Shown here: positions 24,638-40,070 of the stretch, one piece after another
Layout of the letters: the number at the start of each line of letters is the position of its first letter
Numbering within the stretch: the first letter of the stretch is position 1
DNA from: Thermoplasmata archaeon
GTDB lineage: Archaea; Thermoplasmatota; Thermoplasmata; Lutacidiplasmatales; UBA184
Assembly (NCBI GenBank): GCA_052326305.1
Contig: JBKQPJ010000015.1
Coordinates: 35,208 to 99,207, forward strand
DNA length: 64,000 nucleotides
Direction of reading: 5' to 3'
Translations under genes and position numbers: made by a program
The notes under the pieces: generated by a model
Databases searched by the model: none
What the model was told of the DNA's origin: nothing
The model's input: the letters and a program-made list of their open reading frames with translations, nothing else

Positions 24638-24647
24638 GATAAATACC
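24638..24647 (+). promoter_or_regulatory. TATA box (GATAAATACC) for tyrS
   Basis: It sits about 25 bp upstream of the GTG start at 24667. Confidence 0.5.
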
Positions 24648-24666
24648 GGCCGGCCTCAGGCTAACC

Positions 24667-25737
24667 GTGGACATCGACGAGCGCGTCGACCGGGTCGTTC
24701 GCTACACCGTCGAGGTGCTGACGCCCGACGAGGTCCGCGCGCTCTTCGAGCGGACCGACCGTCCGAGGGCGTACATCGGGTTCGAGCCGTCCGGCGCACT
24801 CACCGTCGCCCACCTGATCACCGCCCGGAAGATCCGCGACCTCGCCGAGGCCGGATGTGACGTCACCATCCTCCTCGCCGACTGGCACGCCTGGATCAAC
24901 GACAAGCTCGGAGGAAGCCTCGAGCGAATCGACGCGGCGGGTCGGTACATGCAGGCGACCTTCGAGGCGCTCGGAGCCGACCCGGGGCGCGTCCGGTTCC
25001 GGTGGGCCCACGAGCTCTCCGGCGATTCCGACTACTGGGCCCGGGTCGTGCGCGTGGCGAAAGCGACCACGCTCGCCCGCACGAAGCGGGCGATGTCGAT
25101 CATGGGTCGGTCCGAGGAGGAGTCGAACCTCGACACGTCGAAGCTCTTCTATCCGGCCATGCAGGCCGCCGACATCTTCGAGCTCCCCGTCGACCTCGCC
25201 TACGGAGGGATCGACCAGCGACGCGCGCACGTCCTCGCGCGGGAGGTCGCGCACCATTACTCCTGGCCGGTGCCGGCCGCCGTGCACACGCCCCTCCTCT
25301 CGTCGTTGAAGGGCGGTGCCCGGATGGACCCGGTCGAGGGGCTCATCGAAGGAAAGATGTCGAAGTCCGACCCGGGCACGGGGATCCCGATCCCGGCCGA
25401 GCGGTCCGAGATCGCATCGCGGATCGCCTCGGCGTTCTGCGAGGCGAAGACGGTCGAGGGGAACCCGATCGTCGAGGTCGTCCGGTACATCGTCTTCCCG
25501 TGGGAGGGGCGCCTCGCGATCGAGCGCGCCGAGAAGCACGGCGGTCCGGTGGCGTTCGAATCGGTCGACGAATTCCTCTCGGCGTGGCGGGACGGAAAGC
25601 TCCACCCGCAGGATCTCAAGTTGGCCGTCACGGCGGCGCTCGACCGGCTGGTCGAGCCGGCGCGACGGCATTTCCGGGCCCATCCCGATCTCTCGCCCGC
25701 TTCGTTCGCCCCGCGCCCGGAGGCGCGGGCCGGCTGA
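24667..25737 (+). CDS. tyrS: Tyrosine--tRNA ligase, archaeal type
   Basis: Matches IGFEPSGALTVAHL...ILLADWHAWINDK and KMSKS, i.e. a class I aaRS with an archaeal TyrRS N-terminus. GTG start. Confidence 0.9.
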   Translation: MDIDERVDRVVRYTVEVLTPDEVRALFERTDRPRAYIGFEPSGALTVAHLITARKIRDLAEAGCDVTILLADWHAWINDKLGGSLERIDAAGRYMQATFEALGADPGRVRFRWAHELSGDSDYWARVVRVAKATTLARTKRAMSIMGRSEEESNLDTSKLFYPAMQAADIFELPVDLAYGGIDQRRAHVLAREVAHHYSWPVPAAVHTPLLSSLKGGARMDPVEGLIEGKMSKSDPGTGIPIPAERSEIASRIASAFCEAKTVEGNPIVEVVRYIVFPWEGRLAIERAEKHGGPVAFESVDEFLSAWRDGKLHPQDLKLAVTAALDRLVEPARRHFRAHPDLSPASFAPRPEARAG

Positions 25738-25747: not shown

Positions 25748-26455
25748 ATGGCCGCCGGCGAACCCGACCTCTACGCGGCCGAGGGCCCGGTGGGCGTCGT
25801 CGTCATCCATGAGGTGTTCGGGCGAGACGAGTACGTCGGCTCGGTCGGGCGCGCGCTCGCCACCGCCGGCTTCGCCGCCGCGACGGTCGACCTGTACCAC
25901 GGGCGCCACGCCGGGACCCTCGACGAGGCGCTCGCCCTCCGCGGGGCCCTCGACGAAGGCACGGTCCTCTCCCAGCTCGACGCCGCGGGGGCGGCCCTGC
26001 GCTCGATGCCGCGGCCACCGACGCGCGTCGGCCTCCTCGGGTTCTGCATGGGCGGCGGGTTCGCGCTGCTCGGGGCGTGCCGGCGGCCGTTCGACTTCGC
26101 CGTCGACTACTACGGGCGGATCGACCGGGCGGAGGAGATCGACGGGGCCGTGGGGCCCGTCCTCCTGCTCCTCGCCTCCGAGGACGAGCGCGTCACGCCG
26201 TGGGCGTTCTCGGAGCTCCTTCCGGCGGCACGGAAGTCGAAGAAGCGGGTCACGGTCGAACTGTACCCCGGGGTCCGGCATGCTTTCCACCGACCGGGCT
26301 GGGAGGGGCACGATCCCTCGGCGGCGCGGGATGCGTGGAGCCGCACCCTGGGTTTCCTGCGGGAGCAGCAGCCCGGCGGCGGGAGCGGCCGTTCCGGACG
26401 CGACGGCCCGCGCCGCTCGGCGCGCCAGAGCGTGCGGCACGGGCATCGTAGTTAA
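25748..26455 (+). CDS. Dienelactone hydrolase family protein
   Basis: MAAGEPDLYAAEGPVGVVVIHEVFGRDEYV... matches DLH layout with a GFCMGGG nucleophile elbow. I place the start at the internal ATG at 25748 of ORF 25316..26455. Confidence 0.75.
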   Translation: MAAGEPDLYAAEGPVGVVVIHEVFGRDEYVGSVGRALATAGFAAATVDLYHGRHAGTLDEALALRGALDEGTVLSQLDAAGAALRSMPRPPTRVGLLGFCMGGGFALLGACRRPFDFAVDYYGRIDRAEEIDGAVGPVLLLLASEDERVTPWAFSELLPAARKSKKRVTVELYPGVRHAFHRPGWEGHDPSAARDAWSRTLGFLREQQPGGGSGRSGRDGPRRSARQSVRHGHRS

Positions 26456-26479
26456 ATCCTCCCTGGACGGGCCATTCTC

Positions 26480-27838
26480 CTACTGCCCTGCCGATTCCCC
26501 TACAAGCATAGCGGATGGGGCTCCGGCAGGGGCCGGACCGCTGAGGAAGTCGGGCATGACTCCGTGCTCGAAAATCTCGTGGATTAGGACGGTCAGGTTG
26601 TAGGCCAGGATCTTCGCCAACAGCTCGTTGACCTGGGCTGTGGGATTCTTGGATCGTAGCGTCTCCCCGAACTTCCGCTTGAGGGCCGAGAAGACTGACT
26701 CCACATTCGACCGAGCATGGTACTTGGCCTCGAACTCCTCCCGGTGCATCTGGAAGAACAGGTACGCCTTGCGCCATAGAAGCGAATGGCTGCGGGCGCG
26801 CGCCTCCGGTGTTCCGCTCCTCAACGTTGTGCGACCGGTTTGATTGGACCGGAACGGAACGTAGAGGTCGAAACCCATCTCTTCAGCGAGTGCGTAGTTC
26901 GCCCGCGCCGAATACGCCTTGTCACCGAAGACTTCCTTGAGGCAAAGACCCGCCTTCGCTGCCTGCCGGATGAGCGGCTCGAACTGTGGATTGTCCGCTC
27001 CCTCCTTTCCTGTCACGGAAACCGCGGCGATGATGTGTGTCTTGACGCCGGCGAGGGCATGGGCCTTGATCCAGAGGTGTTCCCGCTTCTCCCCGTGCTT
27101 TTCCTCTCTCCACGCGCCGAACGAGGTCGTTTGGATGCCCGTCGAGTCAGGGGCGAAGCCACTTTCCAATGCCGCGACCGGGAGGGCCGACCGTGTGATG
27201 AGTTCGTGCAGTATCGGGGTCACATCCTCCCTATTCAGGACTTCCGAGGAGATCGTGTAGTGCGGGGCCTTCGGCAACTGACCCCGCTCGACGGCGAAGC
27301 CGAAAAGACCCCTCGCCCGCCGGCACGAAAGCTGCGAATAGACTTTCTGGACTGAGCAAAAGAGTTGATCCGCGAGCGCAATCGGCGGCCGCCCGGCGTG
27401 GTGGGGATCCCTCTCCGGCTCGGGGATACCCACGACGAGGTCCCGGAGAAGAATGTCGAAGAGACGAATCTCCTCTGTTTGCGCCCGGTCGTACGCCGCC
27501 CATGCCTGGGGGTAGGTGAGCGGAACTCGCTCGGAGACCGTCTCGCCCGAGGGGAGAGTTGTCTGCTTTTCGAGGTAGAACCGAACGGATGCTGCATGCT
27601 TGCAGGGCAGGCCACGCGAGGAGTAGTCCTGGCAGGAACACTCGGGACCCTTCTCGGCGAGATGCACTCGGTACGAACCCGGTCCGCTCTGAGACTTGAC
27701 CAGGAAGAGATCATCACGCACTTGTTCAATGGCTCCGGGAGTCGCTGCGATGAGCCTGCCCTTCGCGACCCGATCAGCGTCGATACTCCAGCCCCCCCAC
27801 CCCGAGGCTGGACTCGGCGGGCCCTCCAGACTCTGCAT
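26480..27838 (-). CDS. DDE transposase (IS4/IS5-like DDE_Tnp_1) with N-terminal SWIM-type zinc finger
   Basis: Contains CSCQDYSSRGLPCKHAASV (SWIM CxCx(n)CxH), DKAYSARANYALAEEMG, and YHARSNVESVFSALKRKFGETL (R..VE..F..LK). Start is uncertain: the Met at 27838 is preferred and Mets at 28000 and 28231 are alternatives. Confidence 0.75.
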   Translation of the reverse strand: MQSLEGPPSPASGWGGWSIDADRVAKGRLIAATPGAIEQVRDDLFLVKSQSGPGSYRVHLAEKGPECSCQDYSSRGLPCKHAASVRFYLEKQTTLPSGETVSERVPLTYPQAWAAYDRAQTEEIRLFDILLRDLVVGIPEPERDPHHAGRPPIALADQLFCSVQKVYSQLSCRRARGLFGFAVERGQLPKAPHYTISSEVLNREDVTPILHELITRSALPVAALESGFAPDSTGIQTTSFGAWREEKHGEKREHLWIKAHALAGVKTHIIAAVSVTGKEGADNPQFEPLIRQAAKAGLCLKEVFGDKAYSARANYALAEEMGFDLYVPFRSNQTGRTTLRSGTPEARARSHSLLWRKAYLFFQMHREEFEAKYHARSNVESVFSALKRKFGETLRSKNPTAQVNELLAKILAYNLTVLIHEIFEHGVMPDFLSGPAPAGAPSAMLVGESAGQ

Positions 27839-27886
27839 CGTTCCTCCCCACCTACCGTTGCCTACGTGTAGGCTATGGGCCTGCCG

Positions 27887-27893
27887 ATATAAA
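27887..27893 (-). promoter_or_regulatory. Strong TATA (ATATAAA) upstream of the transposase, flanked by two gcctacgtg direct repeats
   Basis: The sequence reads gatataaagg. cgcctacgtg occurs at 27859-27868 and 27902-27911. The first copy is part of the palindrome GCCTACGTGTAGGC at 27860-27873. Confidence 0.45.
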
Positions 27894-27971
27894 GGTGTAT
27901 CGCCTACGTGGGCGCCAACCCATAGGCTATAGTTAAGTAGCCGACCCCCCGTCAAGGAGATTGGAGAGTCC

Positions 27972-28178
27972 GTGCCGGGAATCTTCAGGTCCCCAATCAT
28001 TCTCGTCCGCGAGAAGTCACCCTCGGTCCGCGTGACGATCCCCGAGGGTGTCGCCAAGGCCCTCGGAGCAGAGCCCGGTAAGGACTTGGTTTGGACGCTC
28101 GACCTCAAGGCAGGTTGGGTTACGGTCTCGGCGGAGCCGCCTGAATTTGCTCCCAAGAATGCGTCCAAGCGACGCTGA
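27972..28178 (+). CDS. AbrB/MazE-like (SpoVT/AbrB swapped-hairpin) small DNA-binding protein
   Basis: 68 aa with a GTG start. VRVTIPEGVAKALGAEPGKDLVWTLDLKAGWVTV matches the AbrB-type pattern. Confidence 0.45.
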   Translation: MPGIFRSPIILVREKSPSVRVTIPEGVAKALGAEPGKDLVWTLDLKAGWVTVSAEPPEFAPKNASKRR

Positions 28179-28319
28179 ACCCAAGCCCGACCCGCGGGCC
28201 CTTGGCGCCGCCGATTCCCGTCAGAGCGCACGAAGAACTAGCTCGGAGGCATTGAAAGGACTTTCCTTCCAAAGGAAAGTGCCTAATAGGAAGGTTGTGT
28301 TAGGAATGTCGATTAGAAC

Positions 28320-28676
28320 ATGTCAGCCTCGACAGGAGCGCAGAGACTATTCTCCCAGACGTTCCTTCAAGAAGCGTTGGCTCAGGAAGTTCATCGACTA
28401 CTGTCACTTCAGTACGCCCGAGGGATTCTCGAGGCGCTAGACGAACATCACGAGGGGCTGGACGTCAGGTGGTTTGATGTCAAGGTTGTCGGCGTTGAAG
28501 GGTCGGGCAGGACTGCGTACGTAGTGGTCAAGAAGCTCTCCGCCGCCGGTTGGATATCTTCTAGGGCAGGCACCAAGCCCCAGCGTTGGCTTCTAACCCC
28601 GAAGGGGAAGGAAGCACTGGATCTCGCTCGTCAGGGAGATTCCATAGGAAACGGGGGGCGGGGGCCCGCTAGATGA
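28320..28676 (+). CDS. Putative winged-helix regulator translationally coupled to the C5-methyltransferase
   Basis: 118 aa. Its stop overlaps the methyltransferase start as ATGA. The C-terminal WISSRAGTKPQRWLLTPKGKEAL looks like a wing. Confidence 0.4.
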   Translation: MSASTGAQRLFSQTFLQEALAQEVHRLLSLQYARGILEALDEHHEGLDVRWFDVKVVGVEGSGRTAYVVVKKLSAAGWISSRAGTKPQRWLLTPKGKEALDLARQGDSIGNGGRGPAR

Positions 28677-29923
28677 GGGGGAATCGGTTCGGGTTCGTCG
28701 ACCTCTTTTGTGGAGCGGGCGGGTTTGCCGAGGGGTTCCTACAGGCCGGGACCGACCGTTCGGAGTTCCAACTGCTCGCGGCCTCGGATGTGCATCGCCA
28801 CGCGCAGGCAACTCACGAGTACCGATTCGGCACTCAGCTCGGTATCCCGTACCGGTTCATCCGGAAGGACATCAGGGACCCGGGCCTCCTTCCTGAGGTC
28901 CGCGAAGCGGTTTCATTAGGGTCCGAAGTCGATGTGGTTTGCGGTGGCCCACCCTGCCAGGGATTCTCGGTCTTCGGCGCAAGGCGCCGGGACGACCCGA
29001 GGAACGATCTGTTCCACCCCTACCTACAGATAGTGCATGCGCTCAGGCCGCGATACTTCGTCATGGAGAACGTGCCCGGCTTCGTCTACATGTATCGGGG
29101 TATGGCCGAGCAACGCATCCGCGAGGCGGTCGATAGCCTGAGGCGGCCTGGTTACACCCTAGCGGGACCGATCTTCGTCAATGCGGCGTCGTTTGGGGTT
29201 CCCCAGTCTCGGGAGCGGGTCATCTTCCTGGGATCGCGCGATGACCAACCGAGGATCGGCTCGGTGCCGGTGCCCGAGGGCATCCACTCCCCATCGGTGG
29301 GGGAGGCGATTTCGGACCTCGCGTTTCTCGGGTCGGGCATGAAGGCAATCGACTATGATCCCCGGTTCCCCCCGGCTTCCGATTACCAGAGGGACTCCCG
29401 TCTCGGCCGGTCCAAGACGCGACCGACTTGGGACGGCAGGCTCCAAAACCACGAGTCCTCGCGGCACACTTCCAGGGTCCTGACACGGTTTCGGCTCGTT
29501 CCGAAAGGGCACTCGACCAAGGATGTGAAAGAGGTGCTGGTCCGCGAAGGGGTCGACTCCGGCAAGAAATGGTGCGTGCGCATTGACGATGCCGACCCGT
29601 CCTTCACGCTCACGACCATTCCGGACGACTTCATCCACTACTCGCAGGACAGGAGCCTGACCGTGCGTGAGTGTGCGCGCCTCCAGTCCTTCGATGATTC
29701 GTTCGTGTTCCTCGGTCCCCGGACAACGGGTGGCGGAGGCGCGGGAAACAAGGTGCGGAACACCGATCTTCCCCAGTATACACAAGTCGGAAACGCCGTG
29801 CCACCGCTAATGGCGCGGGGCATCGCGTTGACGCTTCTCAGGAATCTGGAGAAGACATCCGCTCACCCAGATGGGCCCGAACGACCTTCAGGAACCGCGC
29901 GAGTTCCTTTGGTCGCGGTCTGA
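28673..29923 (+). CDS. DNA (cytosine-5)-methyltransferase
   Basis: Motif I FCGAGGF, motif IV PPCQGFS, motif VI ENVPGF, and a C-terminal QVGNAVPP are present. Confidence 0.9.
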   Translation: MRGNRFGFVDLFCGAGGFAEGFLQAGTDRSEFQLLAASDVHRHAQATHEYRFGTQLGIPYRFIRKDIRDPGLLPEVREAVSLGSEVDVVCGGPPCQGFSVFGARRRDDPRNDLFHPYLQIVHALRPRYFVMENVPGFVYMYRGMAEQRIREAVDSLRRPGYTLAGPIFVNAASFGVPQSRERVIFLGSRDDQPRIGSVPVPEGIHSPSVGEAISDLAFLGSGMKAIDYDPRFPPASDYQRDSRLGRSKTRPTWDGRLQNHESSRHTSRVLTRFRLVPKGHSTKDVKEVLVREGVDSGKKWCVRIDDADPSFTLTTIPDDFIHYSQDRSLTVRECARLQSFDDSFVFLGPRTTGGGGAGNKVRNTDLPQYTQVGNAVPPLMARGIALTLLRNLEKTSAHPDGPERPSGTARVPLVAV

Positions 29924-30623
29924 CGTTCCCCTCCTGACCGTCGCCGAACAGGAAGAACAGGTCGCGTGCCTGGGCGGCCTCCACGATGTCAAAGTCCATT
30001 TCCTTGCGAAGGGCAGCCTGCGTTGAGAGGCAGTGGGGGTGGCCCTTCGACATCAACATCGTCCGTCCCATGAAATCGAAGAACTCCGACTGGGAAATCC
30101 TCACCTTGCTGTTGACGAGAAGAAGGGGCACGATTGACGAACCCGGCGGGAGATGGGTGACGACGTCGGCCGGCCACCGGGCAGTTTGTCTATTTACCAC
30201 CCCATCCGCACCGAGAATGTACCCGATGGCGACGTCGGTCTTCTCCGAAGGTTCTGATTGAGTCGGCTCTCCGGCCTTCCATAGCGTGTAAGTCCCGTAA
30301 GTCGTGGAGACCTCATTGAAGACGAAGAGGGAGGGCCAATCGTGCACGAACTCGAACGCCAAGTGGGTCAGGTAGTCCTGGAAGAGGGCACCGACGATGT
30401 TGCGGGACAGGTTCTGATTGAGGGAGAACTCCGTCTTCGTATTCCTCCGCCCTAGCCAGTTGTAGCCGTCCACGAGTTCCGTCAAGTGTTCTGAAGGTGC
30501 GCGCCCTGCTCGGACATCGTAGCATGATTGGATCTTGGCGAGCCTCATCGCTAGCTCGTCATGTCCGGGCGTCCCGTCATTGACGAGCACCTCGCGAATA
30601 TACACCGACAGCAGATGGGCCAT
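29838..30623 (-). CDS. Putative type II restriction endonuclease, cognate of the adjacent methyltransferase (the enzymatic call is speculative)
   Basis: 261 aa unique ORF. It is convergent with the M gene and its 3' end overlaps it by 86 bp. It has a possible D...(N/E)xK core (TDVAIGY...LLLVNSK). The call rests on position alone. Confidence 0.35.
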   Translation of the reverse strand: MAHLLSVYIREVLVNDGTPGHDELAMRLAKIQSCYDVRAGRAPSEHLTELVDGYNWLGRRNTKTEFSLNQNLSRNIVGALFQDYLTHLAFEFVHDWPSLFVFNEVSTTYGTYTLWKAGEPTQSEPSEKTDVAIGYILGADGVVNRQTARWPADVVTHLPPGSSIVPLLLVNSKVRISQSEFFDFMGRTMLMSKGHPHCLSTQAALRKEMDFDIVEAAQARDLFFLFGDGQEGNVRPRPKELARFLKVVRAHLGERMSSPDS

Positions 30624-30750
30624 CCGGGGTCCATCTGCGAATCTGTAGATAGTCGTTCACACGCCTTAGCGGCCGGTTCTGTGTCCATGTGGCAATTCGC
30701 CGGCAGGGGTGGCGGTGCGGTTACCTATCGTGCTAGACTGACCTGAAAGT

Positions 30751-31224
30751 GTGGCGGATCGGTTGACTCACGCCCAGAGGAGCCGACTGATGTCTCGAAT
30801 ACGGGGTAGGGACACGTTTCCGGAGCTGGCACTCCGGAAAGCCCTGCGCAGACGGGGAGTGCGGTACCGGTCAAACCAGCGGGTCCACGGCATCCGTGTC
30901 GATTTGGTCCTGCGGGGAACGAAGACCCTCGTGATGGTCCAGGGCTGTTTCTGGCACGGCTGCCCCCGTCACTATATCGCTCCGAAATCCAACTCCCGAT
31001 TCTGGAAGAAGAAGATTGTAGCGAACAGAGAGAGGGACCGGTGGCAGGCGGCAATCCTCAGCGCGATGGGGTGGCAGGTGGTCGTGTTGTGGGAGCACGC
31101 CCTCAGGACCGACCCGGCCCGCGCCGTGGAACGATTGATAACCACCGCGCCTCTCCCGTGTAGGGCGGCCCGGCAGGGGGATGCCGGTTACCTGTCAGAT
31201 GAGCGGGGAATGGAGATCCGATAA
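30751..31224 (+). CDS. vsr: Very-short-patch repair endonuclease Vsr
   Basis: TFPELALRKALRRRGVRYR...MVQGCFWHGCPRHY gives a full Vsr signature. Confidence 0.85.
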   Translation: MADRLTHAQRSRLMSRIRGRDTFPELALRKALRRRGVRYRSNQRVHGIRVDLVLRGTKTLVMVQGCFWHGCPRHYIAPKSNSRFWKKKIVANRERDRWQAAILSAMGWQVVVLWEHALRTDPARAVERLITTAPLPCRAARQGDAGYLSDERGMEIR

Positions 31225-33337
31225 GCAGGGCGCGGAGGTCTTCCGCCCCCGAGCCCGCGTCATCAACGTCCTCGGCCGCGACCTGATCCAGAACCCGGTG
31301 GTCGCGATCCAGGAGCTGGTCAAGAACGCGTACGACGCGGACTCCCACCGCATCCGGCTCACTTTCGAGGGACCGCTGGAGAAGGGGCTCGGCGGCCTCA
31401 CCATCGAGGACGACGGGGATGGGATGACCCTCGAGACCGTCCGCACCGCGTGGATGGAACCGGCGACGATCGCGAAGCGCCGCCAGACCCGGACCCGGGC
31501 GGGCCGTCGGGTTACCGGGGAGAAGGGGATTGGCCGGTTCGCTTCCGCCCGCATAGCCAGCCAGCTCGAACTCGACTCCGTTGCCCGGGAGAACGGTCGC
31601 CGGGTTATGGCGCATTTCAACTGGGGAGAGTTCGAGGGCGAGGACCGGTACCTCGACGAGATCCGATGCCGCTGGGAAGAAGGGGCTGCTCCTAGGGGGC
31701 GCGGCCACGGGACGATCCTTCGACTCCGGCAGTTCACCCAGAAGTGGAACGAGGAGAACCTGAGGAATCTGCGGGTCCAGTTATCGAGGTTGCTGCCTCC
31801 CACCGGACCGAAGGCAGACTTCGAGATCGGGTTCGCGGTCGGGGGAACTCTGGGGAAGCGCCTCTCGGGCCCGATCGAGAGGCCCACGTTCATCGAGCAC
31901 GCCCGCTACCAACTACGAGGTCGCGTCGAAGCCGACGGCTCGGTGACGGCGGAGGTATCGTACCGGTCGAGAAGCGAGCCGTTCGTCGAGAAGGGGGGAG
32001 CCCCAGTCCGTGTTGTCATCGAGCGGGAGGGGGAGGAGGACCGACCGCCGACATGCGGTCCGTTCGAGTTCGACATCCGTGTTTGGGACCGCGAGCCCGA
32101 GGACATGAGGGAGCTCGCCAAAGCGGCCGGGTCGACCCTCAGGGACGTGAGGATGGACCTCGACGAGCTGAGCGGGCTCCAAGTCTACCGGGACCGGTTC
32201 CGCATCGTCATGCAAACGCGGGATTGGCTGGGCCTCGACCTTCGCCGGGTCCAGAATCCTAGCCTACGCCTGAGCAACAACCAGATCGTAGGTCACGTCC
32301 AGATCGAATCCGACCGGAACACCGGGCTCGTGGACCAGTCCAACCGCCAGGCGCTCGTAGACAGCCCGCAGCTCGACGACTTCGAGGAAGCAATCCTGTT
32401 CCTGCTCAACCGCCTGGAGGTGTTCCGGCGCCTCAAGAGGCGGAGCCCTGAGAGACCGCCGCCCCGTGCCAGCCTGCTCGAAAAGTTCAACCTGACCGAA
32501 CTCCAAGACTACGTAGCGAAGTCGGACCACTCCAAGGACGAGAAGCTCACCTCCATCATCCAGTCGACGGCGGCCGGAATCAAGACCGGCCTCGGCCAGG
32601 TCCGGGAGATTGTATCACGCTACCGACGCCTGGCAACCCTCGGTACCCTCGTCGACGTGATTCTGCACGAAGGGCGGACGCCCATCGCCGCGATCTCCAA
32701 TTCCGTGGAGATTCTGAAGAAGAGCCTGGCCGGAGGACTCCCCGCACGCGAGGCCGCCGAGGTCAAGCACCAGCTCGATGTGGTCGACCACCAGGTCCAA
32801 GTCCTAACCCAACTCTTCGACCGGGTGGCTCCGTTCAGCGGACGGGCCCGGGGCCGCGTCGAGGTAGCCCCCCTGGAGGACATCATCGCTCGGGCGTTCG
32901 CGGTTCACGCCGGTAGGATCGAGAAGGAGGGGGTGCGGGTCGAACTGCCGTCGGGGCAGACAACCATCCGGATGGACCCCATCGATTTGGAGCTCCTCTT
33001 CCTGAATCTCATCGACAACGCCCTCTACTGGCTACAGAAGGTCCCTGCGGGAAAGCGAGCCATCCGGGTAGAGGTGGCCCGAACCGATGGTAGGGTCGAG
33101 GTCGTGTTCTCAGACAGTGGACCAGGGGTCCAACCGGAGATTGCTGACATGATCTGGGACCCCTGGTTCACCACGAAGCCGGGGGGGATCGGCCTCGGGC
33201 TTACCATCGCCGGGGAGACGGCCGCCGAGCACGACGCGACCCTAGGTCTCTCCGAGAAGGGCCCGCTCCCGGGCGCGACGTTCGTTGTCACCTTCAACTC
33301 TCCCGGCGGTGAAGCCACCCGCGAAGGAGTGGAGTAG
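31181..33337 (+). CDS. Fusion protein: N-terminal paraMORC/MutL-like GHKL ATPase (HATPase_c_3-type) plus C-terminal histidine kinase (HisKA + HATPase_c)
   Basis: The N-terminal GHKL has an N-box (IQELVKNAYDAD), G1 (IEDDGDGM) and G2 (GEKGIGRFASA). The C-terminal region has an H-box (HEGRTPIAAISNSVEIL) and a classical kinase ATPase (FSDSGPGV...GGIGLGLTIA). It overlaps the vsr 3' end by 44 bp. Confidence 0.8.
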   Translation: MPVTCQMSGEWRSDKQGAEVFRPRARVINVLGRDLIQNPVVAIQELVKNAYDADSHRIRLTFEGPLEKGLGGLTIEDDGDGMTLETVRTAWMEPATIAKRRQTRTRAGRRVTGEKGIGRFASARIASQLELDSVARENGRRVMAHFNWGEFEGEDRYLDEIRCRWEEGAAPRGRGHGTILRLRQFTQKWNEENLRNLRVQLSRLLPPTGPKADFEIGFAVGGTLGKRLSGPIERPTFIEHARYQLRGRVEADGSVTAEVSYRSRSEPFVEKGGAPVRVVIEREGEEDRPPTCGPFEFDIRVWDREPEDMRELAKAAGSTLRDVRMDLDELSGLQVYRDRFRIVMQTRDWLGLDLRRVQNPSLRLSNNQIVGHVQIESDRNTGLVDQSNRQALVDSPQLDDFEEAILFLLNRLEVFRRLKRRSPERPPPRASLLEKFNLTELQDYVAKSDHSKDEKLTSIIQSTAAGIKTGLGQVREIVSRYRRLATLGTLVDVILHEGRTPIAAISNSVEILKKSLAGGLPAREAAEVKHQLDVVDHQVQVLTQLFDRVAPFSGRARGRVEVAPLEDIIARAFAVHAGRIEKEGVRVELPSGQTTIRMDPIDLELLFLNLIDNALYWLQKVPAGKRAIRVEVARTDGRVEVVFSDSGPGVQPEIADMIWDPWFTTKPGGIGLGLTIAGETAAEHDATLGLSEKGPLPGATFVVTFNSPGGEATREGVE

Positions 33338-33340
33338 ACG

Positions 33341-34432
33341 ATGGCGGCCGCACCCATCCCGGCTCCCGCCGGCGATTCCTGGCGGATCGCAGTCGTGGAG
33401 GATGAGGAGGATATCCGGGGGCAGATTTGTCACTGGCTGGGGAGGATGGACCCGGTCGAGGGCAAGTCGTTCCAACCCACCCCGTTCCCGGACTTCGACG
33501 GGGCCTGGGCTGGGCTCATGGATTGGAAGTTCGACATTGTCATCCTCGACATCTTCCGAGGACACGGGGGAGTGCCTGCCAGCCCGGGGCTCGATATCAT
33601 GGAGCGAATCAAGCGGACCGCCTTCGTCCCGCTCATCGTCTACACCGCGCTCCCGGAGCGGGTCACGGGACTTCGTTCTCCCATGGTTCGCGTTGTGGGC
33701 AAGGTCTCGGGCCTGGGTGCCCTAGAAGGCGAGGTCCGGCAGTTCCTCGCGTGGCGATTACCCCAGCTCGCGCGGGCGCTGAGAGCCACGTTCGATGACA
33801 CGCTTCGGGACTACATGTGGAGGTTCGTGGACGCCCACTGGGATCGGTTCGAGTCGATGGTCGACAAACCGGACTTCGGACGATTGGTAGTACAACGCCT
33901 CTCGGAGGCATACACCGCTGACGGCTCGAGGGGAGTCCTAGGTGCAGCCTACGGCCCGGTGGCTACGACCGGGCCCCCCGCGGACAAGGTCCATCCCGCC
34001 TCGGTCTACGTCATGCCGGTCCCTACCGGCGTCCTCCGTCTGGGAGACATCCGCGTGCGCCGGGCAGGTGAGAGCCCACCGAAGTATCTCGTGGTCCTTC
34101 AACCGAGCTGCGATACCGTCCGGATCGCACCCGACGCAGAAGGGCAGGGTGCGAGGGACCCCAACGTCGACCGTGTCCTCTGCGCGCGGGCGTACCCACG
34201 GCCCCCGCACAAGTCGGATCACGATTATCCACTTCCGGCGTTCCTCGCGGTTCCGGACCTGATGGTCGAGTTCCACGACCTCGAGATTGCTCCGATCGAT
34301 GACCTGTTGAGTCTCGACTGTGTAGCGAGGGTGGCGAGCCCGTTCGCCGAGCAGCTCGCCGCCAAGTTCGCTGCCTACATCGGACGTATCGGAACGCCAG
34401 AGATAGAAGCGCCCCCGGCCCCTGCGACGTAG
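33341..34432 (+). CDS. Response-regulator receiver (REC) domain fused to an uncharacterised C-terminal effector domain (about 240 aa)
   Basis: The REC region reads IAVVEDEEDIRGQ...FDIVILDIFRGHGG...PLIVYTALPE, with the phospho-acceptor Asp. The C-terminal domain matches nothing I recognise. It starts 3 bp after the HK stop. Confidence 0.75.
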   Translation: MAAAPIPAPAGDSWRIAVVEDEEDIRGQICHWLGRMDPVEGKSFQPTPFPDFDGAWAGLMDWKFDIVILDIFRGHGGVPASPGLDIMERIKRTAFVPLIVYTALPERVTGLRSPMVRVVGKVSGLGALEGEVRQFLAWRLPQLARALRATFDDTLRDYMWRFVDAHWDRFESMVDKPDFGRLVVQRLSEAYTADGSRGVLGAAYGPVATTGPPADKVHPASVYVMPVPTGVLRLGDIRVRRAGESPPKYLVVLQPSCDTVRIAPDAEGQGARDPNVDRVLCARAYPRPPHKSDHDYPLPAFLAVPDLMVEFHDLEIAPIDDLLSLDCVARVASPFAEQLAAKFAAYIGRIGTPEIEAPPAPAT

Positions 34433-34471
34433 TCCAAGTTCCGAGCATAGCAGATTGTCACGTTCCGTTGC

Positions 34472-35764
34472 GTGTGGCAAACCTATTACCAGGAAGCGAG
34501 TATCAACCCCGGCGTGCGCTCTTCCGCCGATGAATGTCGCCGCCCGATTCCCTGCGGTATTGACTTGTTTTCGGGTGCCGGCGGGTTCGGCCTGGGATTC
34601 GAAGCGGCGGGCTTACCCGTCGTGGCCTCCCTAGACAAGGATGCGGATGCCGTAGCCACCCTCGCCGCGAACCCCCCCATTGGCCCCCGGCTTGTCTTCC
34701 ACACCGACATCCGTTCGTTTGGCCCATTAGCGATGGACAAAGCAATCGAGGGCCTTTCTCCCCGTTACCGAGTCGACTTCCTCATCGGCGGGCCGCCATG
34801 CCAGGGCTGGAGCAGGGTCGGACGAGGGAAGCTACGGTCACTCGGGCGTATCGGGTCCACTCCCGCGCCCTTCGCCGAGGAGCGGAACAGGTTGTATCGT
34901 CCGTTCCTCCGGTATGTGTCCCACTTCCGGCCGCGCGTCGTCCTCCTGGAGAACGTGCGGGGAATGGAGTGCTACTACGGGCACGATGGAACGAAGGCGA
35001 TCACGACAGCACTGGACTCTCTGGGGTACCGGACTAAGGTGGTTCCCCTCGACGCCGCCGACTTCGGGGTGCCCCAGCAGAGAAGGCGACTCGTTATTGT
35101 GGGCGTTAGAGAGGACCTGGGACTGGAGCTGGACACACCGATTGGCCCACCCGCCGGATTGGGCATGGATGGCGCCGCACCGACAGTCCGCGACGCGATC
35201 GGCGATCTCCCGTGGGTCCCGTCGGGGAACCAGAGGGATGTGATGCCTTACCGGAAGCTGGAGGATGCCTCTGCGTACCTCAGCCTCCTCCGCCCCGGAT
35301 GGATGAACGGCTCGGTCACTGCCCATATCACCCGGCCCCACCGCCCGGAGGACCGCGAGGCGTTCCGATCGATGAAACAAGGCGGGATCTACTCTGACCT
35401 ACCCGACCGTCTCAAGCGGTATCGCGACGACATATTTGCCGACAAATATCGGAGGTTGGAGTGGGACAAGCCCAGCCCGTGCCTGACGGCCCACCTCGCG
35501 AAGGACGGCTACTCGCACATCCACCCGAGTCAGACGAGGACGATCTCTGTACGGGAGGCGGCGAGGATTCAGGGGTTCCCCGATTGGTACGTCATAGCCG
35601 GGTCGATGGGGAGCCAATTCCGCCAGATTGGAAACTCAGTCCCCCCTCTGCTAGCGTACGCGCTCGCGATTGCTGTACGGAATTTCCTCGGAGTGAAGTC
35701 GGAAATCTCGTGGGACGTTCTATCGTGTTCCGTCTTGCAGACTGGTACGGTCACGAACGAGTGA
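34472..35764 (+). CDS. DNA (cytosine-5)-methyltransferase (second copy)
   Basis: Contains FSGAGGFGLGF, PPCQGWS, ENVRGM and QIGNSVPP. Confidence 0.9.
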   Translation: MWQTYYQEASINPGVRSSADECRRPIPCGIDLFSGAGGFGLGFEAAGLPVVASLDKDADAVATLAANPPIGPRLVFHTDIRSFGPLAMDKAIEGLSPRYRVDFLIGGPPCQGWSRVGRGKLRSLGRIGSTPAPFAEERNRLYRPFLRYVSHFRPRVVLLENVRGMECYYGHDGTKAITTALDSLGYRTKVVPLDAADFGVPQQRRRLVIVGVREDLGLELDTPIGPPAGLGMDGAAPTVRDAIGDLPWVPSGNQRDVMPYRKLEDASAYLSLLRPGWMNGSVTAHITRPHRPEDREAFRSMKQGGIYSDLPDRLKRYRDDIFADKYRRLEWDKPSPCLTAHLAKDGYSHIHPSQTRTISVREAARIQGFPDWYVIAGSMGSQFRQIGNSVPPLLAYALAIAVRNFLGVKSEISWDVLSCSVLQTGTVTNE

Positions 35765-36089
35765 ACTTGTCGCTATCATCCTGCGCGTCCAGGATCTCGT
35801 CTCCAAGTAGGAAGACAACAACGCGGCCGGTTCCAAGGTCGCGTCGTTCCCCATCGTCCAGCTCCCGCCCGAGTGCTTCGTGGGCGGAGTCGACAATGGT
35901 GTGACTCAAGACCTGCCGGCGATGGACTTGGCCGCCGCAGACAAAAACCGCCTCGCTAGGTCCGCCATTCGCGGTCGTAATCCACTTTGGTGTTGCCTTT
36001 CGCACCTCCACACGCTTGAAACCGACTCGAATCAGATCGAAGTACTTCCGACGCACCATGAAGAGGACCTTCCCGGTAACTGTGCTCAC
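35751..36089 (-). CDS. ASCH-domain protein (PUA-like fold; a candidate reader of modified nucleic acid)
   Basis: FDLIRVGFKRVEVRK matches the ASCH GxKxxExR motif. It is convergent with methyltransferase 2 and overlaps it by 14 bp. Confidence 0.55.
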   Translation of the reverse strand: MSTVTGKVLFMVRRKYFDLIRVGFKRVEVRKATPKWITTANGGPSEAVFVCGGQVHRRQVLSHTIVDSAHEALGRELDDGERRDLGTGRVVVFLLGDEILDAQDDSDKFTRS

Positions 36090-36263
36090 CCCCCTACGTC
36101 CTATCTACAGACCGGGCGTAGTTAGGGTGATTGGGGAGACACTCCAATGACGGGGGTGGGGGGGTCGGTGCGCCGGCCCCCGAAGTTCTTCTCGGAAGTT
36201 CGAACATTCTTAGTCCAATCATTCGTTTCATCTACCGCCTCGACCCGAGGCGGGAGGTGGTGA

Positions 36264-36443
36264 ATGGGAAAGGGAAGCAAGGGCGGACCGACTCCGAACG
36301 ACCAGCGATCGCGTGCGATGAACTCGCAGGACGTTGTCGGCAAGATGGCGATAGACCACCGTGCCGGACAGCTTGATCCACGCAATCCTGATTTTTCTAA
36401 GGCTCGGGCTCCGCCCGACCAAACCACTGAATCCACACAGTAG
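36264..36443 (+). CDS. Small protein (59 aa) with Shine-Dalgarno-like site; below the ORF-track cutoff
   Basis: GGAGGTG sits 6 nt upstream of the ATG. The product is MGKGSKGGPTPNDQRSRAMNSQDVVGKMAIDHRAGQLDPRNPDFSKARAPPDQTTESTQ. A hairpin+T-run (possible terminator) lies 19 nt downstream. Confidence 0.3.
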   Translation: MGKGSKGGPTPNDQRSRAMNSQDVVGKMAIDHRAGQLDPRNPDFSKARAPPDQTTESTQ

Positions 36444-36461
36444 GGGCACCGTAGCCCTACC

Positions 36462-36492
36462 GGCCCCCGGCCTTGGCCGGGGGCCTCTTTTT
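36462..36492 (+). terminator. Possible terminator: perfect 11-bp GC hairpin followed by a T-run (bacterial intrinsic-terminator-like signal)
   Basis: The sequence is ggcccccggcc-tt-ggccgggggcc-tcttttt. Confidence 0.4.
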
Positions 36493-36994
36493 CGTCAGAG
36501 ATTCGAGAGTAGGTCCCGACCCGTTACAGCGCAATTTTGACGGCCGGTAGGCCGCGACTTGTTGCAGAACCCGCGGGTAGGAAGGGTTTAGCGGTGGGGG
36601 CGCGTGTCATTGCCCTCGAATGCCGTCTAAGAAGCGCCGCGACTTGACGAGTCAGTGGCTCGTCAAGCAGGACAAGAAATCGCAGAGGCTCATCCCCGTT
36701 GGGCTGTTCGGTTTGGTTGGGGCTTGCCGCCACTTCACCATCGATTGTAAGTCAGACCGCCTTACCAACAAGGGTCCCGGAGTCGTCGCCATCGAAATCG
36801 TAAGGCTGGTGGGCCGGCGTATCGAGGTGACGCTTGAGAACCTTCCTGCTGGGCAGACCTCGGCGGTCAGTCCCTATGCGGTCCGAAACGTGGTTTGTGC
36901 GTTAGATGGATTGAGCTATGCTCTCCCGACCTTCCGAAACCCGCGAACCAAGCGTGCCTCCGACTGAGGGCGGAACTGTACCGCTATCGCGGCA

Positions 36995-38074
36995 TCACAA
37001 TTCTTGATTTTCTCTTGTAACAGCTCGTGGCTTTTGTTTCGGGTCCATCGATATCGTTGTAGCCGATTCGACTTTCACTGCCGTCGCCGGAGGCGGTGGA
37101 CGAAGCACCGGGCGTTCGATTAGGCCGACCAGGGCGCTGCCGAACATCGCTTCGAGGTCCAGGGCGTTGATTCTCTCCTGAGCGGTACTCTCGAACTCCT
37201 TGAGCGCAGGGTCCTCGGAGAACTTCTTGAGATCCCGGAAGAAGTCGCCTAGGCCGGCCTCTTCCGCCAGTCCCTCTAGCTCGGCGTCGCTCGGGAAAGT
37301 GATCATGACTCCGCCGTACGTCCGGAGTTGCGCTAGCGCGGCCTCAATGGTCAGTTTCAGCACCCCTGCGGAGGGGACTTCCTTGGGAAGGTGCTCGAAA
37401 TCTTCACTCTCAAAGACGTTGATGAAGACAGTGCGCCGCTCGTTCCCATCCACAGAGAGTATCACCATCGACTGCCGCCGAATTAGACCTCGCGCTCTCA
37501 ACCACGCTAGGTCCGAGGCAAGCCGGTCGGTGTTCTCGAACTCAACCTGTTGGATCGATTCTGCGAGTCGATCCGCAGGAATTTCCACTCGGGTCTTTTC
37601 CTCCCGGACCATGTCAGAGAACTCGGGCGGTACAATCACGCCCAACGCCCTTTTCCCCGGCTCAGGCGTTCGAAGCAGCTTGACGAAGGTGGAGTCCAAA
37701 GAACCGGTAAGTAGGCCCGAGACGACACGCTGAAGGTCGATTCTGGCGACTGTTTCGAAATCCCTTCCCTTTAGGTGAATCTCACCGGAGGGATGGAACG
37801 AGATGTGTAGACCTGCCGGCAGGAGGCCGGGCATCGGAATGACGTACTTTCCGCCATCGGTGGCCGTCACGGTTTTCAATACGCGCAGACCCGGCGAAGT
37901 AGCCCCCGGCGCGGCCGTCGTGGGCACAACCCGAAGTTCCTTCTCCCTGGACGGCATTTGCTGGGGGAAGGAATCGGACCTAAAGGATAGCTCGGAGTCG
38001 CAATACGGCTTCACTTGTCGAATCTGTTCAGTTCTCGGGATATGGCCGCCATCGGAAGCCAAGCCGTACAACAC
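36995..38074 (-). CDS. Hypothetical protein (359 aa), last gene of a three-gene island operon
   Basis: Unique composition with no motif I recognise. It lies 30 bp downstream of the preceding gene. Confidence 0.5.
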   Translation of the reverse strand: MLYGLASDGGHIPRTEQIRQVKPYCDSELSFRSDSFPQQMPSREKELRVVPTTAAPGATSPGLRVLKTVTATDGGKYVIPMPGLLPAGLHISFHPSGEIHLKGRDFETVARIDLQRVVSGLLTGSLDSTFVKLLRTPEPGKRALGVIVPPEFSDMVREEKTRVEIPADRLAESIQQVEFENTDRLASDLAWLRARGLIRRQSMVILSVDGNERRTVFINVFESEDFEHLPKEVPSAGVLKLTIEAALAQLRTYGGVMITFPSDAELEGLAEEAGLGDFFRDLKKFSEDPALKEFESTAQERINALDLEAMFGSALVGLIERPVLRPPPPATAVKVESATTISMDPKQKPRAVTRENQEL

Positions 38075-38104
38075 AACCCGAAGGGCTGAGAGGCACCGGG
38101 CATT

Positions 38105-38895
38105 TCATGCATGGGCCGTTAGGTGCTCCAAGAAGTCCTCCTTTTCCTCCCAGAAGCCAACGATGTCGGCCCGCCTCTTGAGGGTGGATACTATCGGTCC
38201 CGTCCAAACGTCGTCTTCTACTGAATCGTCCAGTAGGCAAGCAGACCGGAACTGGAGCCCCGTATCCCGAATTTCGAGGAACGCGACGATGGCCTTGTTA
38301 ACCAGTGTGCTAGCCCAACCGGAACTCAATGACGAGAAGGCATACATCAACGTCCGTGGCTGCGAAGCACTCAGAGGTTCAAGGTCGAAATCAAAGACCC
38401 AGTGTTTCCCACCGGCTCCTGTATAGTCCCTCCAACGTGCGTGCTCGATATGGGCCGAAGTCAGCCATCCCGCAACGTCGTCAGCGAACCCAAGTTTAGA
38501 TCGAGCCTTCGCCGTCATTGCGATGTGCTGGGCTGACCTCGCCGCCTCGGTGACCCGGGTGAGTGCTTCGGACAGATCACCTATCGGCGCCCTTGCTACA
38601 ATCTCACTGCCATGCGCCGACACTCCGAGCCTCCTCAGAGTGGTTTCAAAGAACCAGTTCTGGCGCGATCCCTCCTTGAGTTCCACTCCGTGGAGGAATA
38701 GGAAGCCGACTGATTCGCCCATGTCGGACAGTTCGACGGTCTGGCCACGAATCGAAATGCGCACCTGTATCGGGTCGTTGTCCTGGTTTAGGAACGGCGT
38801 GGTGAGCACACAGTCCTCCCCATCCTGCTCGACTGAGAACACGGCCTCCAAGTGAGAGAGGTACTGGCCGAGGACGCGCGTACAGTCAGTCACGG
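38105..38895 (-). CDS. Hypothetical protein (about 263 aa), middle gene of the operon
   Basis: GTG start (VTDCTRV...) preceded by GGAGGA at -8. It overlaps the upstream stop as GTGA. I do not use the track ORF's N-terminal extension out to 39115. Confidence 0.5.
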
Positions 38896-39363
38896 GAAAT
38901 CCTCCATTGACGTCTGAGTGTGGATTGGGTATGGGCCGGGAGCGATCCTGCACTCCTTTAGAAAGTCCACGAGCGCCCCGTCGGGGTCGCCCGACCTGAC
39001 TTCGGAAACCGGATAGGAGGGGCTGTCTGCGAACCTCTCGTCTGGATAGTGCTTGTGCGGTCCCTTCATACGGGAGTTCGTAACGGGGTCGAGATGGCCT
39101 GGCTTGTAATCCCACCGGCGAATAATCACGCTGTTACGAACCACCAGAGCGAATCCGTAACGATTCGGCTTGCCCGGGCTGAATTTCCTGCTTACCCAGC
39201 CTCGAATCGTCATCGGGGTTCCATCCTCACCGATGACCGGGAGCACGAGGTACCTGCTGCCGTCGGCCCTCGAATCCCATTGGACCGGACCGGCAAGCTG
39301 TTTGGGCAGCTCGTAGAGGTAGTCAGCCTCTCCCTTGCTGATAGGGGCCGCTCCCTCTGCCAT
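38890..39363 (-). CDS. Hypothetical protein (157 aa), first gene of the operon
   Basis: Non-repetitive ORF translationally coupled to the next gene. Confidence 0.45.
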   Translation of the reverse strand: MAEGAAPISKGEADYLYELPKQLAGPVQWDSRADGSRYLVLPVIGEDGTPMTIRGWVSRKFSPGKPNRYGFALVVRNSVIIRRWDYKPGHLDPVTNSRMKGPHKHYPDERFADSPSYPVSEVRSGDPDGALVDFLKECRIAPGPYPIHTQTSMEDFP

Positions 39364-39537
39364 ATCGGTTCGCCGGACGCTTCCGCTGTCTCTGAGCGCT
39401 GTTGAGCACTGGAGACATAAAGCGAGGGGTCGGAGGGGTATCGAAACGGTTTCAGTTCGGAACCAGTTCGATTTCGGGGTAGCGGCTCTTCGGCTGCGGC
39501 GCGGCCCGCTTGAGCAGCTAGTGCCACCAGAACCCCC

Positions 39538-39604
39538 GATTCTCCTACAGCCGCCAAATCCAGGCGGGAATTCTCCTACTGCCGAGGATTATCCCTACAA
39601 AGCC
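39538..39604 (+). repeat. Right-hand copy of the island-flanking direct repeat (tandem 1.5 copies); its left partner is at 26474-26510
   Basis: gattctcctacagcc...attctcctactgccgaggattatccctacaaagc is compared with attctcctactgccctgccgattcccctacaagc at 26474. Confidence 0.5.
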
Positions 39605-39698
39605 TGCGGCACGCGCACCGTTAAATAGCGGGGGCCGTACCTCGGCCCTACCCGTGAGCCGAGGATCCCCTCTGGGGGTTCCGCTGACGCGAGGCACC

Positions 39699-40070
39699 AT
39701 GGCGCGACCGATTTACGTGCGATTCGAGACCCCGAGCGACCTCGCCGACAAGGCCCTGCAGCTCGTCCAGATCGCGAGCGAGACCGGCAAGGTCCGGGTC
39801 GGGACGAACGAAGTGACGAAATCGAGCGAGCGCGCGGAAGCGAAGCTCGTCGTCATGGCGGAGGACGTCGACCCGGTCGAGATCCTCGTCCACATCCCGA
39901 TGCTCTGCGAGGAGAAGCGGATCCCGTACGTCTACGTGCCGAAGAAGCAGCGGCTCGGCCAGTCGGCCGGGCTGTCGAAGTCCGCGGCGAGCGTGGCGAT
40001 CGTGGAGGCCGGCGACGCGAAGGCGCTTCTCGACGAGATCGCGGCCACCTTCCCCACGCTGAAGAAGTGA
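39699..40070 (+). CDS. rpl7ae: Ribosomal protein L7Ae (K-turn binding)
   Basis: [12 protein letters not shown]...[12 protein letters not shown]...[10 protein letters not shown]...[12 protein letters not shown]. is a 123 aa canonical L7Ae. GTTAAATAG at 39620-39628 is a likely TATA, which leaves a 5' leader of about 50 nt. Confidence 0.9.

Follow-up and report, generated by a model that had tools for sequence, protein, structure and literature searches.

Transporter insertion sequences (tIS) and unit transposons encode a single transposase and carry passenger genes between one pair of inverted repeats. IS903, an insertion sequence (IS) of the IS5 family from enterobacteria, is 1 kb long, has one gene, and makes a 9-bp target duplication. 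Here we analyze 64,000 nt of contig JBKQPJ010000015.1 from a soil Thermoplasmata metagenome-assembled genome (MAG), hereafter the window, in which an island of 13,163 bp (26442–39604) lies just 5' of the ribosomal protein genes L7Ae, S28e and L24e. An earlier note on this DNA had suggested that the island may be a decayed integrative element. In our analysis, it is very probably a single IS903-like (IS5 family) cargo transposon of the cut-and-paste type with a 9-bp target duplication. Its organization is that of a tIS or unit transposon, in which a DDE transposase and an AbrB/MazE-like protein form the core and ~11 kb is cargo. It differs from the tIS in its large load (at least 12 genes) and in belonging to a family whose cargo is dominated by methylase, restriction-modification (RM) and defence genes.

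Other described elements resemble this one in part. The bacterial Mutator-like DDE elements TnGBS, ISLre2 and ISKra4 insert 15–17 bp 5' of sigma-A promoters and leave the promoter intact; they have asymmetric inverted repeats, and some are large and bear cargo (PMC3942029). The sole remark on Archaea in this connection in the same paper is that ISH6 duplicates an AT-rich motif (PMC3942029). These elements are the closest parallel in behaviour to the archaeal family described below, the tip of which likewise lies 15–17 bp 5' of a core promoter element, the TATA box. The likeness is one of behaviour and not of membership: the bacterial transposases belong to the p-MULT superfamily and the target is the −35 box of sigma-A promoters, whereas the catalytic domain here is DDE_Tnp_1 and the target is an archaeal TATA box, and TnGBS carries conjugation genes while this element has none. 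Among Archaea, the aloposons of Heimdallarchaeia (Wu et al. 2022, as cited in PMC11529989) set a precedent for transposons with cargo; IS903-type ends and promoter targeting do not feature in the description of them in PMC11529989, and we see no relationship.

Although its GC is ~73%, the host is not a haloarchaeon. The island differs clearly from its surroundings in composition. Its GC content is 61.7% versus 72.8% for the remainder of the window, and its tetranucleotide distance to the host is 0.0437, compared with 0.0088 ± 0.0016 (maximum 0.0116) for 13-kb chunks of host DNA, so that the lower GC which the earlier note had seen over ~13 kb is confirmed by computation. We then compared the locus with 80 related Thermoplasmata loci, one genome per species. 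The gene order KaiC-like, tyrS, (optional) dienelactone hydrolase (DLH), L7Ae is conserved in most of them, and in most the upstream gene, DLH or tyrS, ends ~100–140 bp from the L7Ae start; this is the empty site that the note had proposed to look for. DLH is present at the locus in ~25 species, within ~0.3 kb of L7Ae in all but three of these, and in the closest relatives it is absent and tyrS adjoins L7Ae. None of the 80 loci contains any of the island genes. Because the relatives show an empty site and lack the island genes, the island is an insertion: an accessory block of lower GC that was acquired horizontally and now separates DLH from the L7Ae cluster, directly 5' of L7Ae-S28e-L24e as had been claimed. 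The last ~95 nt 5' of L7Ae, from caccGTTAAATAGC on, are conserved in all 80 loci, and the sequences diverge farther upstream; in several relatives, the stop codon of the upstream gene is the TAA within the L7Ae TATA box (GTTAAATAG). Both junctions were recovered in independent assemblies (left in L084, right in L002; loci carry L numbers throughout), and the island is therefore not an assembly artefact.

Two genes at the left end form the core of the element:

26480–27838, minus strand: transposase (tnp), 452 aa, DDE_Tnp_1 (IS5 family, IS903-like) with an N-terminal SWIM zinc finger
27972–28178, plus strand: AbrB/MazE-like protein, 68 aa, divergent from tnp, with a weak Pfam MazE_antitoxin match that is firmer in L094

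The transposase matches Pfam DDE_Tnp_1 at 5.8e-25 and SWIM at 4.4e-06. Across the catalytic core it aligns with IS903B, and ~100 extra N-terminal residues hold the SWIM finger. Residues D231, D306, E380, Y373, R376 and K387 do not vary when the protein is aligned with IS903B and 17 family members; these make up the DDE triad and the Y-(2)-R-(3)-E-(6)-K motif by which the IS903 group is recognized. Domain, catalytic residues, termini and the 9-bp duplication are shared with IS903, at a protein identity of only ~24%. With an NCBIfam IS5 score below the cut-off, the archaeal protein is a divergent branch of IS5. The archaeal family departs from IS903 further in its AbrB-like partner, its asymmetric subterminal repeats, its passengers of 2–11 kb and its TATA-proximal insertion. 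Homologues of the transposase at E ≤ 1e-20 number 1433, several of them on multiple contigs, and MAGs of Thermoplasmata, Methanothrix and Methanoregula are the sources of those with names. Looking up the exact protein gave this locus in other assemblies and no second copy, and a search of a plasmid collection gave distant IS903/IS5 matches only. The small AbrB-like gene adjoins tnp in L091, L093, L104, L150, L115, L122, L126 and L137 with 46–85% identity (79–85% in the closest members, 46–49% in distant ones), which makes it a conserved partner of the transposase within the core. The IS that had earlier been listed as a separate item among the accessory genes is thus better described as the element's own transposase, situated at the tnp-proximal end of a 13.2-kb unit.

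The ends were located by comparison with relatives, since a naive search of 26300–28800 for IS-sized inverted repeats around the transposase returned nothing convincing. In close homologues, the DNA 3' of the transposase stop always reaches a common terminus, ...CAAAGCC, beyond which copies that are otherwise identical (L087, L088, L089) have different flanks. The ends of IS903B, read from a Klebsiella plasmid (GGCTTTGTTGAATAAATC and ...CAACAAAGCC), have the same terminal bases, CAAAGCC / GGCTTTG. An 81%-identical element, P0002, ends ...GTGTAGGAGAAC...GTGTAGGAGAACCCACGGTTCTAAGGAGGTTCACCTACAAAGCC, that is, two GTAGGAGAA copies and then, at the tip, the motif in inverted orientation, and the right end in the window (...ATTCTCCTACTGCCGAGGATTATCCCTACAAAGCC) stops at 39604 with the same tip. 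At the opposite end, next to the transposase, GTAGGAGAATGGCCCGTCCAGGGAGGATTTAACTACGATGCC matches the tnp-proximal end of the P0002 element in length and exactly in its 42-nt register. We therefore put the left tip at 26442, which is 32 bp left of the repeat that had been taken as the boundary. The features at the two ends are:

26433–26441: left target site duplication, 9 bp, TGCGGCACG, abutting the left tip and lying in the last codons of DLH
26442–26461, plus strand: left (tnp-proximal) terminal inverted repeat, GGCATCGTAGTTAAATCCTC, which provides the last DLH codons and the stop codon TAA (26453–26455)
26474–26484 and 26494–26504, minus strand: two left subterminal motif copies, AGTAGGAGAAT and TGTAGGGGAAT, flipped relative to the tip
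39539–39549 and 39570–39580, minus strand: two right subterminal motif copies, TGTAGGAGAAT and AGTAGGAGAAT, in the same orientation as the right tip
39584–39604, minus strand: right (tnp-distal) terminal inverted repeat, GAGGATTATCCCTACAAAGCC, ending with the family tip CAAAGCC
39605–39613: right target site duplication, 9 bp, TGCGGCACG, identical to the left copy and abutting the right tip

The terminal inverted repeats are imperfect and ~21 bp long (GGCATCGTAG… / …CCCTACAAAGCC); an inverted alignment of the two tips gives 12/22 matches ungapped and ~15/21 with one gap. The right tip is an exact CAAAGCC at 39604. The left tip reads GGCATCG, with GGC kept, and departs from the family consensus GGCTTTGTAGG (over the longer repeat, GGCATCGTAGTTAAAT versus GGCTTTGTAGGAGAAT). 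With the element and one TGCGGCACG removed, the site reads ...CAGAGCG TGCGGCACG CGCACCGTTAAATAGC, and the DLH product closes with VRHAHR*, its stop being the TATA-box TAA as it is in relatives; with the element present, DLH ends VRHGHRS* through the TAA inside the left terminal repeat, its last three codons replaced. As a separate observation, the left terminal repeat GGCATCGTAGTTAAAT (26442–26457) resembles the native sequence to the right of the duplication, CGCACCGTTAAAT (39614–39625), and its TAA closes the DLH ORF at almost the same point, which may reflect coincidence, selection or end/target mimicry.

The direct repeats that had been described as bounding the island are real. Exact copies of ATTCTCCTACTGCC lie at 26474 and 39570; a third copy, with one mismatch, lies at 39539. 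Three matches in 64 kb compare with 0.09 expected, 0/100 shuffles reached three, and a gapped alignment stretches the repeat to 26474–26514 versus 39570–39609. They do not mark the boundaries, however: they are subterminal copies of a 10–11-nt motif, ATTCYCCTAC, inside both transposon ends, and not att sites. Within the window the motif is confined to the two element ends, and in ~1.1 Mb of related loci it was found in L065 only. The two ends are built asymmetrically, with the tip and both subterminal motifs in one orientation at the tnp-distal end and the two motifs flipped relative to the tip at the tnp-proximal end. The asymmetry accounts both for the direct rather than inverted appearance of the repeats and for the overlap between the left one and the end of the transposase ORF (open reading frame). 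That overlap, which the earlier note entered as a caveat, is a feature of the family, as the tnp ORFs of homologues also run into their subterminal repeats. The layout of a tip and two flipped motifs recurs in L091, L093, L094, L095, L104 and L150.

These observations bear on the integrative-element model, in which the direct repeats would be attL and attR of an element that has lost its integrase. The island does share with integrase-type islands a distinct composition, absence from relatives and a position beside a conserved gene, and direct repeats lie near both of its ends. Yet no tyrosine or serine recombinase domain or recognizable fragment was found in the island ORFs scanned, not every short ORF being covered, with Pfam, NCBIfam, PHROGs and PADLOC at standard and relaxed E-values, in agreement with the earlier statement that no integrase is present; nor is there a tRNA gene in the window to serve as target. 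The repeats sit inside the ends, the left one 32 bp from the boundary, and their motif is a subterminal repeat in the transposons of the family. No att core is present, and the boundaries show the inverted repeats and 9-bp duplication typical of DDE transposition. A candidate att core, TGCGGCACG..GTTAAAT (26433–26457 versus 39605–39625), with integrase arm sites was dropped because homologous ends show GGCATCGTAGTTAAAT to be an inverted terminal repeat. The model is contradicted by these results and we give it almost no credence. As the DDE and YREK residues are conserved, both tips are present and the duplication is perfect, the element looks intact rather than decayed.

Relatives of the element occur in Thermoplasmata MAGs and in soil and wetland metagenome contigs, sharing GGCTTTG tips and 9-bp duplications. 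Complete members were sought by a blind search for a 9-bp duplication with inverted tips, which gives such duplications in eight family members besides the window element:

L095 element: 4,545 bp, terminal inverted repeat 17/22, duplication CGCTCGTAT
L098 element: 4,700 bp, duplication GAGAGCCCC
L122 element: 6,014 bp, terminal inverted repeat and 9-bp duplication
L124 element: 4,620 bp, terminal inverted repeat and 9-bp duplication
L138 element: 3,631 bp, terminal inverted repeat and 9-bp duplication
L140 element: 2,270 bp, terminal inverted repeat and 9-bp duplication
L151 element: 6,553 bp, terminal inverted repeat and 9-bp duplication
L150 element: ~8.9 kb, 9–10-bp repeat

The window element is the largest member seen. 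Candidates in L117 and L120 lack GGCTTTG and were treated as chance, and for L152 the second end was not found. At four places (L123 ~11259, L122 ~5547, L124 ~116, L151 ~55), a tip and 9 bp are followed by a second tip or tip-like sequence, for example GTTACAAAGCC|CTACGTTTT|GGCTTTGTAAC; L124 and L151 share GGCTG[CT]GTCCCATAATTC. Such double-tip insertions are possibly tandem elements re-using one duplication, junctions between two inverted repeats, or cases of end-like target recognition.

One could argue that an older island was already present, that an unrelated IS happened to insert at its left edge, and that the right tip is the solo remnant of another IS copy. There is only one transposase gene, at the extreme left, and the left tip is degenerate, both of which would suit such a history. 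Identical 9 bp beside two tips 13 kb apart fit one insertion, however, and the neighbourhood of the transposase contains no tnp-distal tip. Close homologues, moreover, share the layout of tnp, small AbrB-like gene and methylase cargo. We regard this explanation as very unlikely. With a single transposase gene and no internal tips, the island also lacks the two flanking IS copies of a composite transposon. That no tip occurs internally and the motif is found at the two ends only supports a reading of the 13 kb as a single unit.

The cargo comprises the following ORFs:

28320–28676, plus strand: 118-aa ORF, possibly winged-helix; a called gene in independent assemblies, with no significant match
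28673–29923, plus strand: C5 cytosine DNA methyltransferase 1 (Pfam DNA_methylase 3.1e-50; PADLOC MTase_II 4e-86)
29838–30623, minus strand: 261-aa ORF, a called gene with no family match
30751–31224, plus strand: Vsr very-short-patch mismatch endonuclease (Pfam Vsr 2.6e-19; PADLOC Vsr 5.4e-19)
31181–33337, plus strand: 718-aa protein with an HgiDII/BbrUII-type GHKL ATPase N-terminus fused to HisKA and HATPase_c
33341–34432, plus strand: 363-aa ORF with a weak N-terminal receiver-like region (NCBIfam PhoB 1.4e-4; Pfam Response_reg 0.045; phrog_731 5.5e-5)
34472–35764, plus strand: C5 cytosine DNA methyltransferase 2 (Pfam DNA_methylase 6.7e-56; PADLOC DrmMII/MTase_II)
36620–36967, plus strand: 115-aa ORF, a called gene with no family match
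36995–37957, minus strand: 320-aa ORF, a called gene with no family match
38105–38893, minus strand: PDC-M24B (DUF1828), candidate defence gene (PADLOC 6.8e-24; Pfam DUF1828 2.1e-9)
38890–39363, minus strand: PDC-M24A (DUF6978), candidate defence gene (PADLOC 9.7e-4; Pfam DUF6978 7.1e-6)

A simple IS of ~0.7–2.5 kb carries only its own transposition genes; here at least 12 passenger genes fill ~11 kb. The two C5 methylases, Vsr, the HgiDII-like GHKL domain and PDC-M24A/B make this a putative cluster of defence genes. In the 718-aa protein, the matches are HATPase_c_3 (5.7e-19) and restrict_BbrUII (4e-18, residues 26–203), with HisKA and HATPase_c at residues 488–706. Lying between Vsr and the second C5 methylase, this GHKL/histidine-kinase fusion and the receiver-like protein (31181–34432) may form a two-component-like restriction or defence module. 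In L091, a 114-aa ORF at the position equivalent to that of the 118-aa ORF has a faint HVO_A0261_N match. An ASCH domain had been reported in the island, for which we find no Pfam support at 36620–36967.

Cargo differs among the elements, and most carry DNA methylase or RM genes: Eco57I-like type IIG enzymes in L087–L090 and L152, and N6/N4 methylases in L091, L095, L098, L104, L124, L138 and L150, where they stand alone, are fused to Mrr, or accompany AlwI/NucS-like nucleases. An IS6-type (DDE_Tnp_IS240) transposase is nested in the cargo of the L150 element (L150 3741–5354). The window's load raises the question of whether the island instead grew in place, a small IS903-like element (tnp and the AbrB-like gene) arriving first and 11 kb of defence genes being added later by insertion or recombination, so that the 13 kb never moved as a unit. 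GC is heterogeneous inside the island (~0.59–0.62 on the left, 0.64–0.67 in the middle, 0.57–0.60 on the right), a hint of mosaic cargo; insertions at the L7Ae promoter recur, as described below; and no cargo gene of the window was found in the other family members compared. Against this, nothing in the island accounts for secondary insertions, as internal tips are lacking and neither a second transposase nor a recombinase is present, and other members of 3.6–8.9 kb bear cargo between their tips with intact 9-bp duplications, so cargo units do transpose. We therefore consider growth in place unlikely and the single cargo transposon the better account.

The insertion site is not a random one. 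The right tip lies 15 bp from the TATA box of the L7Ae promoter, and outward from the tip, flank after flank in the family shows the 9-bp duplication, 6 bp, and then a TATA-like sequence, [G/C]TTAAATA:

39619–39627 of the window, plus strand: L7Ae promoter TATA box, GTTAAATAG, starting 15 bp from the tip of the element
Window: duplication TGCGGCACG, 6 bp CGCACC, TATA-like GTTAAATAGC
L065: duplication GTCTCGGCC, 6 bp GGCACC, TATA-like GTTAAGTAGG
L095: duplication ATACGAGCG, 6 bp CGTACG, TATA-like GTTAAATACT
L098: duplication GGGGCTCTC, 6 bp CAAATG, TATA-like CTTAAGAGGA
L094: duplication AGCCGAGGC, 6 bp AGAGGC, TATA-like TATTTATAGC
L087: duplication TCTCCCGAC, 6 bp CCCGGG, TATA-like TGTTAAGTAC
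L089: duplication GGTGTTCAC, 6 bp CCCTAG, TATA-like ATACAAATAG

For 11 independent insertions in the close clade, the heptamer starting at +16 to +18 gives a Fisher combined p of 1.4e-8 when its AT content is compared with random positions in the same loci. Four further elements were fetched once this statistic was fixed, and two of the four passed: L150, with TTTATA 5' of tatA, and L153, with GTTTTAAAG 5' of the gene for the TATA-binding protein (TBP). L151 failed the heptamer test, and L152, with only one flank visible, lacks the motif there. A third comparison used every CAAAGCC in 1.82 Mb: 29/155 distinct occurrences have an AT-rich heptamer (≥ 6/7) at +16 to +18, while the rate for 40 composition-matched 7-mers is 131/5036, or 2.6% (binomial p 1e-16), and the AT profile past CAAAGCC peaks at +17 to +23. 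Putative targeting of TATA boxes is thus statistically well supported at the level of the family, on the basis of a few dozen insertions and inferred promoters. A preference for intergenic DNA could result from survival bias, but a spacing constant to within 1–2 bp cannot. In L153 (8348–8944), a family member lies 48 bp 5' of the TBP start codon, which is to say at the promoter of the TATA-binding protein gene itself.

Four of 81 species (the window, L065, L024 and L051) have a family tip at the L7Ae promoter, in each case at the same offset. The L065 element is in the opposite orientation, and the C-terminus of its transposase, IFEHGVVPDFLS, is readable at the contig edge. L051 (86–1678) holds a 1.6-kb element at the same TATA-proximal offset, with tips GGCTTTGCCC, a 7/9 duplication and a 406-aa ORF in place of a transposase; it may be a non-autonomous family member. 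We did not count L034, where a 42%-identical transposase lies 1.1 kb 5' of L7Ae, as a zinc-finger ORF intervenes and no tip is clear at the TATA offset.

In the mechanism we propose, the transposase would bind the subterminal GTAGGAGAAT repeats as well as the imperfect inverted repeats at the termini and synapse the two ends, which would be joined to a 9-bp staggered target cut, gap repair then yielding the TGCGGCACG duplication. The tip came to rest 15 bp 5' of the TATA box of the L7Ae-S28e-L24e operon with the promoter intact, and the cargo probably benefits or addicts the host, so that the element would be stabilized. The site could be read as a sequence resembling the inner tip (GTxxxAAAT) or as DNA bent by TBP/TFB. 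The searchable literature yielded no account of an archaeal transposon that targets TATA-proximal sites. It is quite possible, if short of probable, that these elements constitute a widespread and undescribed archaeal family of IS903-like cargo transposons that homes to a fixed site (tip, 9-bp duplication, 6 bp, TATA). They would be the first promoter-targeting transposons in Archaea; their SWIM or AbrB-like modules may read TBP/TFB-bent DNA or a TATA-like sequence, and they would act as vehicles of RM and defence genes between lineages while leaving host genes unbroken.

Several observations weigh against these readings and should be kept in view. The left inverted repeat is degenerate, with two mismatches to the family tip in its terminal 8 nt, and a blind scan of the window for terminal inverted repeats and target site duplications ranks chance GC-rich pairs with 8-bp repeats above the true pair; since the repeats by themselves are outranked in this way, the assignment of the ends rests on the family comparison. 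The transposase scores 128.1 bits against the NCBIfam IS5 model NF033579, below its cut-off of 140. A single copy of the element was recovered, in each case at this site, with neither an empty allele from the same species nor an excision junction seen, and its current mobility is unproven. Cargo functions are predicted from domain matches only. As for the targeting, the statistic for the 11 insertions was defined post hoc, after the data had been seen; some insertions have no TATA motif (L151, L140) and several have one flank visible; and the TATA boxes were called from sequence and conservation, without mapped transcription starts.

The neighbours of the element are core genes, as had been noted before:

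22311–24674, minus strand: KaiC-like ATPase, left flank
24667–25737: tyrS, left flank
25748–26455: DLH, directly left of the island
39699–40070: L7Ae, right flank, followed by S28e and L24e

The L7Ae TATA box is kept in the 80 relatives, ~75–80 nt 5' of the L7Ae ATG. Downstream of it, the L7Ae 5' leader (window 39640–39698, and the same position in L003–L082) consists of CCCGTGAGCCGAGGA, a GC hairpin and then TTCCGCTGACGCGAGG, kept in 80/80 relatives; it resembles the published autoregulatory k-turn leader of L7Ae (PMC5539422, PMC6298567). At the Rfam gathering threshold, no family was found in the island or in this leader. An archaeal SRP RNA (Rfam RF01857, 136.8 bits) lies just left of the KaiC-like gene, at 21934–22246 on the minus strand. 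Between tyrS and L7Ae in L003–L082, the gene content just 5' of L7Ae varies among species: a gene with a GST-like C-terminus (read by eye) fills a gap of 1.2–3.7 kb in several (L021, L067, L077), and several contigs end ~150–260 bp from L7Ae (L012, L024, L050, L065). This variation, together with the contig breaks, is consistent with a variable hot spot.

An island that resembled a decayed integrative element is, on the account given here, a complete and possibly still mobile transposon with defined ends, which alters the way in which “integrase-less islands” of this kind are to be annotated in MAGs of Archaea. An archaeal transposon that is site-directed and spares promoters could also serve as a genetic tool. 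The spacing between insertion and TATA box would be the archaeal counterpart of sigma-A promoter targeting by TnGBS/ISLre2, reached with an unrelated transposase, and it raises the question of whether the transposase reads the archaeal pre-initiation complex or the DNA sequence alone. As methylase, restriction and candidate defence genes are carried almost everywhere in the family, these elements may be a significant route of defence-gene exchange in soil archaea.

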